Source: Candidatus Woesebacteria bacterium
GTDB taxonomy: Bacteria; Patescibacteriota; Microgenomatia; UBA8517
Assembly (NCBI GenBank): GCA_003484955.1
Contig: DMZH01000002.1
Coordinates: 211,496 to 275,495 of the forward strand
Reading direction: 5' to 3'
Length of the DNA stretch: 64,000 nucleotides
The first letter of the stretch is position 1; the number at the start of each line of letters is the position of its first letter. The notes below the pieces were generated by a model that saw only the letters and a list, made by a program, of their open reading frames with translations, searched no databases and was not told the origin of the DNA. Below are positions 29,459 through 31,961 of the stretch, one piece after another. The position numbers were made by a program, and so were the translations under genes.

Positions 29459-29468
29459 AACTCCAAAG

Positions 29469-29540
29469 TGCCCTTAGAAAGAATCGAACTTTCATTTCAC
29501 CCTTAGAAGGGGCGCGCTCTATCCGTTGAGCTATAAGGGC
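29469..29540 (-). tRNA. tRNA-Arg (TCT)
   Basis: Acceptor GCCCTTA/TAAGGGC, anticodon loop CTTCTAA. Confidence 0.8.
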
Positions 29541-29541
29541 T

Positions 29542-29616
29542 TGGAGCGGCGGACGAGAATTGGACTCGCTACTTTCTCCTTGGCAAGGAGACGTTCTACC
29601 GATGAACTACCGCCGC
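29542..29616 (-). tRNA. tRNA-Gly (GCC), CCA encoded
   Basis: Acceptor GCGGCGG/CCGCCGC, anticodon loop TTGCCAA, 3' TCCA. Confidence 0.85.
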
Positions 29617-29930
29617 AAGTATTTTCTACAGGCTTAATTCTACAACAAACGGGTTTAAAACTCTAGCTGGAACAACTTACTTTCTTCCGGATACAATGAT
29701 GCAGTGTTAATGGAAATTCTTTTTTAAAGAAGAGCTTTTAGAAGTGCCTCACGAATATTTTTGCCGGCAAACCAGCTTTTAAGGAAAACTATCGCATGTT
29801 TATTTTTGTTCAACTCCTGAAGATAATACTTGTCCACATGTCCGCCTTTTTTAAACAAGATGTTCGCAAGTTCTTTTATTGAAAATTTGGTATAGATAGT
29901 TTAATTATACCATCTTCGTAGAACTATATG

Positions 29931-30003
29931 TGCTGAGACCAGGAGTCGAACCTGGATAGCTTGTTCTTCAGACAAGTGCCTTGACCACCTTGGCTATCTC
30001 AGC
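29931..30003 (-). tRNA. tRNA-Phe (GAA)
   Basis: Acceptor GCTGAGA/TCTCAGC, anticodon loop CTGAAGA (G at position 37), T-arm CCAGG/TTCGACT/CCTGG. Confidence 0.8.
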
Positions 30004-30075
30004 ATGAACAAAGTGAGTGCGGAGAAAACGTTCTGCACGAAGTGCGGGTTGTTATCTCGGCACACTCTACTTCAG

Positions 30076-30149
30076 TGGTCGCTGAGGGATTCGAACCCCC
30101 GACCTTCTCGATGTAAACGAGACGCTCTAACCAACTGAGCCAAGCGACC
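30076..30149 (-). tRNA. tRNA-Val (TAC)
   Basis: Acceptor GGTCGCT/AGCGACC, anticodon loop TTTACAT. Confidence 0.85.
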
Positions 30150-30154
30150 TTGTG

Positions 30155-30235
30155 TGCACTCGGAGAGACTCGAACTCTCACGCCTTTCGGCATAGCTCCT
30201 TAGGCTACCGCGTATACCAATTCCGCCACGAGTGC
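30155..30235 (-). tRNA. tRNA-Leu with apparent anticodon AAG (A34), type II
   Basis: Acceptor GCACTCG/CGAGTGC, anticodon stem GTAGC/GCTAT with loop CTAAGGA, long variable arm, discriminator A. Confidence 0.7.
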
Positions 30236-30250
30236 TTGCCAACTCCCGAG

Positions 30251-30334
30251 TGCCAAGGGCGGGACTTGAACCCGCACGCTCTTTCGAGCACACGCTCCTG
30301 AAGCGTGCCTGTCTACCAATTTCAGCACCTCGGC
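30251..30334 (-). tRNA. tRNA-Leu (CAG), type II
   Basis: Acceptor GCCGAGG/CCTTGGC (one G-U pair), anticodon stem CACGC/GCGTG with loop TTCAGGA, long variable arm. Confidence 0.85.
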
Positions 30335-30387: not shown

Positions 30388-31122
30388 GTGCGTGAATTGA
30401 ACGCTGGTATATCGTTTTTCTTGAAACGTCGTATCAAGATCTCCACAAACTTGACAGATTGTCTACACTTGTGGCATCCTGATTTGGTGGAAAGGTCTAT
30501 ATTAAATAGGGAAGAGAGCTTCGGATTCTGGAAAAATATCATTTTTGTAGCCGTATTTTTTGTCATCACGCCTGTTACGATTGGAGTCAGCCTATTCTCA
30601 CTTTTTTCGTTAAAGAAAAATGAGGTTGTTGAGAAAAAATTTAACACCACAAATTTAATCGTTTCACCCAAATCCGGAGTTAGTGTCTACGCGTCACTTC
30701 CCGGAAACGTTCCTACTGTTTCGTCCTCAATTGAGTACGCCGATGCCAGACCCCAAATTATCAAAAATTATCTTGAATCATACAATTCTCCACTTACTCC
30801 CTACGCAAATCTGATCGTAGAAACAGCCGACGAATATTCCATAGATTTCCGTTTAATAACAGCCATATCCCAACAAGAAAGCAATCTCTGTAAAATCATT
30901 CCACCCGGATCTTACAACTGTTGGGGTTGGGGAATAACCAGTGTGGGTTCGTTGGGTTTTGACTCGTTTGCCGACGGAATAGAAACTGTTTCAAAAGGTC
31001 TCCGCCAAAACTATTTGAACAAAGGTTATTCAACAGTTGATGAAATTATGTCCAAATATACACCCCAAAGTAATGGCTCCTGGGCGTATGGCGTAAATTC
31101 TTTCATGGACCAAATGGAGTAA
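30388..31122 (+). CDS. Membrane-anchored SLT-domain (lytic transglycosylase-like) protein
   Basis: N-terminal TM helices. C-terminal domain with ITAISQQESN (catalytic Glu-Ser) and YNCWGWGI. Paralogous to 31304..31840. Confidence 0.55.
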   Translation: MRELNAGISFFLKRRIKISTNLTDCLHLWHPDLVERSILNREESFGFWKNIIFVAVFFVITPVTIGVSLFSLFSLKKNEVVEKKFNTTNLIVSPKSGVSVYASLPGNVPTVSSSIEYADARPQIIKNYLESYNSPLTPYANLIVETADEYSIDFRLITAISQQESNLCKIIPPGSYNCWGWGITSVGSLGFDSFADGIETVSKGLRQNYLNKGYSTVDEIMSKYTPQSNGSWAYGVNSFMDQME

Positions 31123-31180: not shown

Positions 31181-31209
31181 TTGACAATCCTATAATCTCA
31201 TGCTATAGT
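31181..31209 (+). promoter_or_regulatory. Near-consensus sigma70-type promoter (TTGACA-N17-TATAGT)
   Basis: -35 TTGACA at 31181-31186, 17-nt spacer, -10 TATAGT at 31204-31209. Confidence 0.45.
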
Positions 31210-31215
31210 ATTCCT

Positions 31216-31300
31216 ACATTCCGAGGCTTAGGCATGGAAACATGACTTCGGCGTTGGGATTATATTTGGGGGGTACCGTAAGGTATCCCCCTTCTTTTTT
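31216..31300 (+). ncRNA. Candidate small RNA or terminated leader (promoter plus about 85-nt transcript plus intrinsic terminator)
   Basis: A 10-bp GC-rich hairpin (GGGGGGTACC GTAA GGTATCCCCC, 31268-31291) is followed by TTCTTTTTT. It lies about 55 nt downstream of the promoter and only 4 nt before the next ATG. Confidence 0.35.
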
Positions 31301-31303
31301 ACT

Positions 31304-31840
31304 ATGCCGTTAATCATGAGAAAAATAACTACAATCTTGGTAGCCTTAATCGTACTGATCCTTTCAAGTGCGAGGAGAACCTATGCTCAAACCGTTTCAG
31401 TTCAGTCTGCAATACTCAATAGCGGAACCGACGATACCGGTTTTGATTATCGTGTAGAAAACTTAAGAAAATTTTTGATAAAGTACAACTCTCCTTTAGT
31501 TGATTATGCCGATGAATTTGTAGCCTATGCTGATGAAAATGACATCGATTATAGACTCGTTCCCGCAATTACCGGTGTTGAATCAACATTTGGAAAACGT
31601 ATTCCGAAAGACTCCTACAACGCCTATGGTTGGGCCAATGGAAATTATAAATTTAGCTCATGGGAGGACTCTATCGGGCATGTTTCCGAAACCTTGAAAA
31701 GAGCCTATATTGACCGTGGTGTTGTCTCAATTTACCAAATCGCAAAAGTTTATGCGCCCCCTTCAAACACGTGGGGTAGAAATGTTACGTTCTTCGTGTC
31801 AAAAATAGACACACTACCACTCGATTTTGATATAATCTAA
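31304..31840 (+). CDS. Secreted SLT-domain (lytic transglycosylase-like) protein, paralog of 30388..31122
   Basis: Signal peptide and AITGVESTFG / YNAYGWANG motifs aligned with the paralog. Confidence 0.55.
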   Translation: MPLIMRKITTILVALIVLILSSARRTYAQTVSVQSAILNSGTDDTGFDYRVENLRKFLIKYNSPLVDYADEFVAYADENDIDYRLVPAITGVESTFGKRIPKDSYNAYGWANGNYKFSSWEDSIGHVSETLKRAYIDRGVVSIYQIAKVYAPPSNTWGRNVTFFVSKIDTLPLDFDII

Positions 31841-31847
31841 CCGATGA

Positions 31848-31931
31848 GCCGGGGTGGTGAAACGGTATACACGCTAGGTTTAGGACCTAGTGCCCCTTAA
31901 AGGCGTGCAGGTTCAATTCCTGTCCCCGGCA
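31848..31931 (+). tRNA. tRNA-Leu (TAG), type II
   Basis: Acceptor GCCGGGG/CCCCGGC, anticodon stem CTAGG/CCTAG with loop TTTAGGA, long variable arm. Confidence 0.85.
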
Positions 31932-31961
31932 CATAAATAATTAATTGTGCTAATATAAGCT

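Follow-up and report, generated by a model that had tools for sequence, protein, structure and literature searches.

A conserved promoter-hairpin-terminator unit upstream of tRNA-Leu(UAG) in Microgenomates, a candidate small-RNA gene

Introduction

Bacteria of the Candidate Phyla Radiation (CPR) are uncultivated, with genomes of about 1 Mb and few regulators, and to our knowledge almost nothing is known of RNA-based regulation in them. In the stretch of 64,000 nucleotides analyzed here (the window), which belongs to a Woesebacteria genome (Microgenomates, CPR) of Rifle-aquifer type, an initial annotation pointed to a compact module in which a near-consensus promoter is followed some 55 nt downstream by a G+C-rich hairpin and a U-tract, ending just before the ATG of a gene described as the second of two SLT paralogs. 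Such a tight promoter-terminator pair raises the question of what is being made: a small RNA of about 85 nt that ends at the terminator, or the mRNA of the downstream gene, with the terminator acting as a conditional attenuator. Here, we describe the parts of the module, its conservation, its folding, and its neighborhood, and we weigh the explanations that these results leave.

Results

The promoter of the unit, P1 (Table 1), has the sequence of a sigma-70 promoter, with near-consensus hexamers (11 of 12 matches to the consensus), a spacer of 17 nt within the 17 ± 1 range, and an extended -10 TG; the TTGACA-N17-TATAGT of the initial annotation is confirmed at 31181-31209. It is the sole site in the 64-kb window that matches this pattern with at most one mismatch, and since 0.35 such sites are expected by chance, the promoter alone is weak evidence and not decisive. 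It is also the sole case in the window of TTGAC[AT] combined with an extended -10 on the + strand. Most tRNA genes and clusters in the window carry an extended -10 TGnTAnAAT a few nucleotides upstream and no recognizable -35, pointing to such promoters as the norm in this organism; the near-consensus P1 is exceptional for this genome. The region between 8467 and 38416 is dense and holds 15 tRNA genes, especially on the minus strand at 29468-30334.

The 5' end of the RNA, as judged from the distance to the -10, would be an A 7 nt after this element, and its 3' end would lie in the U-tract. Overlooked initially was a 43-nt hairpin, HP1, that fills the gap of 55 nt between promoter and terminator hairpin, so that the predicted transcript consists of two hairpins and not of one. 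HP1 has a 7-bp basal stem (AUUCCGA/UUGGGAU) with G-U pairs, a G-G mismatch, then G-C and C-G pairs, and above these a variable internal loop and an apex with a GAAA loop. The second hairpin, HP2, reads GGGGGGUACC-GUAA-GGUAUCCCCC, with 10 pairs, 7 of them G-C, and is directly followed by the U-tract UUCUUUUUU; this 10-bp hairpin with its GUAA loop and U-tract (31268-31300) had been described as such, and a G+C-rich hairpin before a U-tract is the build of an intrinsic terminator. Folding of the transcript 31216-31300 gave -40.3 kcal/mol versus -21.7 ± 3.2 kcal/mol for shuffled sequences (z = -5.8; none of 200 shuffles equal).

Table 1. Features of the locus, in coordinates of the window
Feature	Position	Strand	Remark
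Upstream paralog ORF	30388-31122		36% identical to the hydrolase over the catalytic domain
P1, -35 hexamer	31181..31186	+	TTGACA; kept in relatives
Spacer element	31189..31196	+	CCTATAAT; consensus C-Y-Y-R-T-A-R-T; between -35 and -10
P1, extended -10	31201..31209	+	TG-C-TATAGT; TG 31201-31202, TATAGT 31204-31209
Predicted ~85-nt RNA	31216..31300	+	fold and covariance model scores in the text
HP1	31218..31260	+	43-nt hairpin, highly paired in relatives
Linker	31261..31267	+	UAUAUUU; A/U-rich, single-stranded; almost always 5-8 nt long and U-rich in other members
HP2	31268..31291	+	intrinsic terminator hairpin, GUAA loop, 10-bp G+C-rich stem
Terminator U-tract	31292..31300	+	directly 3' of HP2
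Hydrolase ORF	31304..31840	+	secreted, GH73-like peptidoglycan hydrolase; start probably 31316
P2	31828..31836	+	extended -10 promoter of tRNA-Leu; inside last hydrolase codons, 11 nt before the tRNA
tRNA-Leu(UAG)	31848..31932	+	constant downstream partner of the RNA unit

A homolog search with the downstream protein as the query and one genome per species yielded 47 loci, and the same promoter and HP1 are present upstream of the hydrolase gene in 46 of them. The exception, L047, is the most divergent hydrolase locus: there (L047:2740-3000), an HP1-like variant hairpin (AAUUCUUGAGG…CUUCCGGAAUU) stands behind a TTGACT promoter, no terminator precedes the gene, and tRNA-Leu is 2.3 kb away. Across the genome loci, the HP1 basal stem is paired in 99.5% of cases and 5 of its 9 pairs show compensatory changes, as in UUCCGA/UUGGGA, UUCUGA/UCAGAA, and UCCUGA/UUAGGA; because many of the HP1 pairs are G-U, the RNA strand is fixed as the + strand. 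HP2 has 24 nt (10 bp and a tetraloop) in most members, behind a linker of 5 to 8 nt, and its sequence is free to vary, with 98% pairing and compensatory changes in all 9 modelled pairs. Both hairpins were recovered by RNAalifold, which found compensatory changes in 13 of 18 pairs. When 76 distinct sequences were taken together, pairing reached 98.9% of cells, and double changes were seen at 14 of 18 pairs; none of 500 shuffles did as well, and slid controls are 41 to 51% paired. The covariation analysis with homologous intergenic regions that the initial annotation had proposed as a check thus came out positive, and the hairpin, whose absence from related genomes was to count against the proposal, is conserved across Microgenomates.

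A covariance model built from 37 sequences scored 89.9 bits (E = 3.5e-18) at the unit in the window, against 16.7 bits for the next best site, and over 648 kb of related DNA it found the unit once in each locus; no additional copy was detected with it elsewhere in the window or in these 648 kb. The invariant nucleotides cluster at the base of HP1, as GAGGC ... GCGU with the G-G mismatch; in the internal loop and at the apex, neither sequence nor length is kept. The U-tract is present in ~80 to 90% of the members, and the first 8 nt behind HP2 contain ~6 U on average, whether or not the locus has the hydrolase gene.

An unbiased metagenome scan, with a pattern restricted to the -10 box and the base of HP1, returned at least 120 loci; ~118 of the 120 matches listed carry the unit, and L064 is a clear chance match. 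As the pattern excluded the -35, conservation of this element is independent of it: among the matches listed, a -35 TTGAC[AT] at 16- to 18-nt spacing occurs in 100 of 101 distinct promoter regions, and the extended -10 TG is kept in 95 of 101. The spacer element between the two boxes, which is also present in all genome loci, has its fixed positions conserved in the same 101 listed regions (C in 100, T in 90, A in 94, and T in 89). In more than 100 loci, this box is a second copy of CTATAR, placed 13 nt ahead of the -10; it is a candidate operator or an alternative or second -10-like box. P1 is the best-conserved part of the region. Altogether, at the level of sequence comparison, the promoter-hairpin module is conserved far beyond chance, and the RNA unit is ancestral in Microgenomates, a class-level clade of the CPR.

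A distant form of HP1, type B, was found in 10 loci of Gottesmanbacteria, Shapirobacteria, and relatives (L028, L030, L036, L038-L042, L045, and L046). In type B, a G-U pair replaces the G-G mismatch, making HP1 a continuous helix, and an invariant 3' arm, ACUUUAGGAU, leads into seven or eight U and then into AUG, GUG, or UUG. The arm carries AGGA, and in L028 and L038 the AUG is the hydrolase start, with AGGA as a sequestered Shine-Dalgarno sequence; in five loci the start codon opens a mini-ORF of two codons (MG, MV, MA, or LD, then stop). The type B arrangement looks cis-regulatory, and an HP1 that abuts U7 and an AUG counts against reading the unit as an autonomous small-RNA gene.

The second possibility raised initially, a conditional terminator or attenuator, predicts an alternative antiterminator pairing in the folded transcript. 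When 75 sequences were folded up to the emergence of the terminator 3' arm, HP1 was intact in all 75 and the terminator 5' arm was essentially free, engaged in only trivial local pairs, and forbidding the terminator cost a mean of 17 kcal/mol. Neither an antiterminator nor any mutually exclusive pairing was found in these 75 sequences, HP1 and HP2 always coexisting, which speaks against the conditional terminator as it had been proposed. We also looked for weaker terminators where the hydrolase would need read-through and saw none, HP2 being equally strong with and without the hydrolase gene (-18.4 versus -17.4 kcal/mol; 5.8 versus 6.1 U). A U-run in the linker is rarer in hydrolase loci (4/46 versus 14/39; Fisher p = 0.003, a statistic that ignores phylogeny).

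Exactly one terminator is present in 73 of 82 loci and two in only 1 of 82, and tandem terminators as a sign of processive antitermination were rejected. In ten loci (L017, L024, L027, L043, L050, L085, L106, L110, L124, and L147), HP2 has no U-tract, and a further hairpin with flanking A- and U-tracts, resembling a bidirectional terminator, comes after it. L106 has three hairpins in series, and HP2 is retained even where another hairpin terminates.

The hydrolase gene, to which the initial annotation had tied the module, turned out to be a secondary partner, the most constant one being tRNA-Leu(UAG). This tRNA gene lies downstream on the same strand in 47 of 47 genome loci and in the window, and in every locus with enough sequence, including ~100 of the metagenome loci listed. 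Among the metagenome matches listed, ~52 loci have the order module, hydrolase homolog, tRNA-Leu(UAG), and ~48 have no hydrolase gene, with tRNA-Leu(UAG) 55 to 120 nt after HP1; an ORF before the tRNA's own promoter is absent in about 45% of the unbiased matches listed. In these "direct" loci, a -10 element, often TGnTAnAAT, stands between terminator and tRNA-Leu(UAG), and both the element and the tRNA are within 20 to 80 nt of the terminator. A -10-like element precedes tRNA-Leu in 35 of 39 direct loci and in 32 of 46 loci with the gene. In the window, this promoter, P2 (TGATATAAT), lies within the last hydrolase codons (…DFDII and stop; 31828-31840), and the same overlap occurs in close relatives (…TTTGATATAATCTAA). 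In L119, L138, and L121, a GC-rich insert appears to follow the 5' part of tRNA-Leu, with a complete tRNA-Leu(UAG) predicted beyond it; the insert could be an intron, an insertion, or a partial tRNA duplication.

On the other side of the unit, a class I SAM methyltransferase gene is the upstream neighbor in 111 loci, though it is not adjacent in the window; in most lineages, this gene for a 250-aa protein (e.g., L011:2106-2864) ends 40 to 100 nt upstream of the module. Its best NCBIfam similarity, weak and far below the cutoff, is to CmoM, an enzyme that modifies U34 of tRNAs, and a possibly CmoM-like neighbor beside a U34 tRNA-Leu is suggestive. A DUF192 gene follows tRNA-Leu on the 3' side in ~72% of the loci, and the whole neighborhood is syntenic, so that the linkage between unit and tRNA-Leu may be partly inherited gene order. 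The near-invariant place upstream of tRNA-Leu(UAG) may nevertheless reflect a role in cis.

The end of the module just before ATG 31304 was correctly placed, with three nucleotides between the U-tract and this codon; the start conserved among homologs, however, is probably ATG 31316 (MRKI...), which would widen the gap to 15 nt. The protein has a signal peptide and no Pfam match above threshold, with weak matches to Glucosaminidase (PF01832, E = 0.017) and to the NCBIfam "peptidoglycan hydrolase" (3.6e-4), and the Pfam SLT domain was not matched even at E <= 10. A profile of 27 homologs matched the phage cell wall hydrolase 8yxk (1.5e-9) and LytB-type endo-beta-N-acetylglucosaminidases, and because of these profile matches we assign the hydrolase as a GH73-like, lysozyme-fold enzyme that is not a Pfam SLT member. 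The "second SLT paralog" of the initial annotation is a paralog of the preceding ORF (36%), but a glucosaminidase-like and not a Pfam SLT protein. The two paralogs differ in targeting, the upstream one having an N-terminal membrane anchor and the downstream one a cleavable signal peptide; in loci without the downstream paralog, the upstream one is usually still present. In the genome loci, nothing conserved that could be a hidden promoter was found between HP2 and the hydrolase start, a gap of 4 to 25 nt. In the lineage of the window, the ORF starts 4 to 15 nt past the U-tract, a gap too small for a promoter and devoid of any conserved sign of one. In more than 50 lineages the hydrolase gene thus stands close to a terminator of full strength, and it probably has no promoter of its own and would be transcribed by read-through from P1. 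A database look-up for transcript-derived contigs coding for the hydrolase returned only metagenomic DNA from Rifle aquifer sediment.

A scan of the window and 30 diverse loci against Rfam 15, at gathering and at permissive E-value thresholds, returned only tRNAs and subthreshold noise. SRP/4.5S RNA was rejected for want of an RF00169 match, and the apex and loops of HP1 vary freely where that RNA requires a GNRA tetraloop and a conserved symmetric loop (AGCA side). A PyrR site had been considered because of a resemblance, UCCNGAGG, to the PyrR binding site; RF00515 gave no match at E <= 10 and no pyr genes are nearby. Small ribozymes and leader families had no Rfam match. A K-turn or tetraloop receptor in the internal loop of HP1 was dismissed on inspection, the loop sequence not being conserved between subgroups. 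A T-box was rejected for the lack of an Rfam match, for a candidate "codon" that varies, and for a negative tRNA duplex test, the predicted energy of pairing between the small RNA and tRNA-Leu(UAG) being no better than that of shuffles (mean z = +0.3). Mimicry of the anticodon loop, or specifier pairing, holds only for type B and part of the type A members; the window has CCG, and the putative specifier positions covary with the opposite arm of HP1 and not with the invariant anticodon. Of 37 type A members, 10 lack the leader-peptide uORF that a UUG in the linker at +6/7 would open through the terminator, and neither its frame nor its length is conserved; it is in frame with the gene in about one-third of type A members, as expected by chance. 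The layout of an Hfq-type small RNA is present, with its own promoter and terminator, a U-rich linker, and a poly-U tail; it is the HP1 stem that holds the conserved bases, and of the linker only the composition is conserved.

Discussion

We propose a model in which the module is an autonomous small-RNA gene with an unconditional terminator and the hydrolase is expressed by leakage through HP2, a reading to which we give about an even chance of being correct. P1 would start transcription at about 31216, and the nascent RNA would fold at once into a 5'-terminal HP1 with its sequence-conserved basal stem. After the 7-nt U/A linker, transcription would stop at HP2 and the U-tract, leaving as the main product a stable two-hairpin RNA of about 85 nt with a protective hairpin flush with its 5' end. 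The ancestral order would be SAM-methyltransferase gene, unit, and tRNA-Leu(UAG) with its own extended -10 promoter; in the lineage of the window, the gene for the secreted GH73-like hydrolase would have come to stand between the terminator and the tRNA promoter. Hydrolase expression would then depend on the minority of P1 transcripts that pass HP2, which would act as a fixed attenuator keeping a potentially lytic enzyme low.

The persistence of the intact unit before nothing but a separately promoted tRNA, together with the lack of a switch, argues that selection acts on the ~85-nt RNA itself. Hence, the 85-nt small RNA that had been predicted from the tight promoter-terminator pair gains from the comparative data, as a unit conserved with covariation that persists where no protein gene follows. 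We infer that the base of HP1 (G-U / A-U / G-G / G-C / C-G) would be a protein-recognition site, with a trans-acting or protein-sequestering function, because a conserved helix base interrupted by G-G (or G-U) suits such a site better than a base-pairing seed. Several observations weigh against the small-RNA gene: conservation lies in a helix, where base-pairing small RNAs typically have a single-stranded seed; retention of a promoter-less hydrolase gene behind a full-strength terminator in dozens of lineages could equally mean regulated read-through; and the near-invariant position of tRNA-Leu(UAG) also counts against it, but the whole neighborhood is syntenic.

Among known systems, the closest in layout are the stand-alone small-RNA genes of enterobacteria (Hfq- or ProQ-class), which likewise run from promoter to terminator over 80 to 90 nt, with a 5' hairpin, an A/U-rich linker, and a poly-U tail, as single intergenic copies. 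The unit differs from them in that its conserved sequence is in the base of a helix instead of a single-stranded seed, in its occurrence in the Microgenomates lineage of the CPR, in the protein gene apparently dependent on terminator read-through, and in the absence of an Rfam match. The Bacillaceae-1 motif, an orphan structured RNA near rRNA operons, also has two hairpins and a fixed place beside stable-RNA genes; its sequence and structure are different from those of our unit, which has its own consensus promoter and terminator, the Rfam scan being the only comparison made.

Read-through of HP2 might instead be controlled by a factor, either a protein on HP1 or HP1 itself acting on RNA polymerase in the manner of nut or put sites, which would make the unit an attenuator or antitermination leader: read-through would turn on the hydrolase and add to tRNA-Leu(UAG) transcription, and the 85-nt RNA would be the "off" product. 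We regard this as rather unlikely, though it accounts well for a hydrolase gene that more than 50 lineages keep, without promoter, only 4 to 25 nt past a terminator of full strength, for the position of HP1 at the extreme 5' end with a sequence-conserved base and G-G mismatch, and for a unit that is always co-oriented with and upstream of the hydrolase gene and/or tRNA-Leu(UAG). The promoter-spacer element could serve as a loading or operator site, two or three serial hairpins stand before the gene in L106, L017, L027, and L043, and type B, with HP1 abutting the start codon, is compatible with such control. Promoter-proximal antitermination substrates such as the lambda PR'-tR' "6S" transcript with Q, N/nut boxB, and the HK022 put RNA share with the unit a strong promoter, a spacer element, a structured 5' nascent RNA, and a terminator before the genes. 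Unlike these, however, the unit is chromosomal, vertically inherited, and beside a tRNA gene, usually has one terminator, and includes members with no downstream ORF, and nothing resembling Q, N, or put, whether factor or sequence, was identified. As HP1 and HP2 have no alternative pairing, control would have to be mediated by a factor, and none was identified; moreover, the tRNA of the direct class has its own promoter and does not need read-through, multiple terminators are exceptional (two in 1/82 loci), and no antitermination family of Rfam was matched. A bolder version is more doubtful: CPR bacteria would have a new, factor-dependent system of antitermination or attenuation in which HP1 is what a protein, or RNA polymerase itself, recognizes, possibly after loading via the spacer element, and the choice would be whether the region's strongest promoter yields just the 85-nt RNA or also the hydrolase and the single tRNA-Leu(UAG). 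If true, HP1-dependent antitermination would tie cell wall remodelling and decoding capacity, in a minimal genome, to a single signal. The same neighborhood might also be a passive architecture, in which P1 is simply the promoter of a hydrolase and tRNA-Leu operon, HP1 a 5' stabilizer of the kind that 5'-terminal hairpins provide to bacterial mRNAs, HP2 the terminator or insulator of the upstream methyltransferase or paralog gene, and the short RNA functionless. HP2 is indeed the first terminator downstream of the upstream gene and the whole neighborhood is syntenic, but a stabilizer would not require an invariant GAGGC...GCGU base across a class-level clade, and in the direct class P1 would serve nothing, being followed by a terminator and a separately promoted tRNA, and yet it is best conserved; we consider this account improbable.

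Two further explanations would have the RNA sense a small ligand or a tRNA. The initial annotation had set riboswitches aside because the module is too short for known classes, an argument that does not hold, since several riboswitch classes have aptamers under 60 nt. The order of promoter, conserved structure, terminator, and promoter-less ORF is that of terminating riboswitches and attenuators, the nucleotides around the G-G mismatch are invariant, and cell wall hydrolase genes are known riboswitch targets (ydaO / c-di-AMP), so that HP1 could be imagined as a small metabolite or ion aptamer with HP2 as its expression platform for the hydrolase. We nevertheless find it very unlikely: the defining switch is absent, with no mutually exclusive structure and with aptamer candidate and terminator separated by a linker and both always formed; HP1 is free to change in its internal loop and apex; type B has a G-U pair for the mismatch and a continuous helix; and about half of the members among the matches listed precede no regulated ORF, again with no Rfam match. 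Leader-peptide or T-box-like attenuation that senses tRNA-Leu(UAG) would explain the strict linkage to this tRNA, a UUG or AUG 6 to 8 nt after HP1 in many members, and the type B 3' arm UUUAGGA, which equals the anticodon loop of tRNA-Leu(UAG), the 5' arm being its complement. It can hardly be credited, given the uORF missing from 10 of 37 type A members, its unconserved frame and length with an in-frame share at chance, a specifier that varies (CCG in the window) and covaries within HP1, the small RNA-tRNA duplex no better than shuffles, and the failure of any T-box or leader family to reach threshold; for type A, it is largely refuted.

The RNA family is new, being absent from Rfam and, as far as CPR, Microgenomates, or tRNA-Leu-linked RNAs are concerned, with no relevant description found in the searchable literature, whereas its kind, a promoter-to-terminator small-RNA unit or terminator leader, is well known. 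What sets it apart is its class-level conservation in the CPR, its exceptional promoter, its fixed place before tRNA-Leu(UAG), and the hydrolase gene kept behind the terminator. This last arrangement turns into a testable question, i.e., whether read-through is passive or regulated. P1 and HP2 offer a ready-made strong promoter-terminator pair for CPR bacteria, and if the product is a housekeeping or regulatory small RNA, it would provide a handle on gene control in the CPR.
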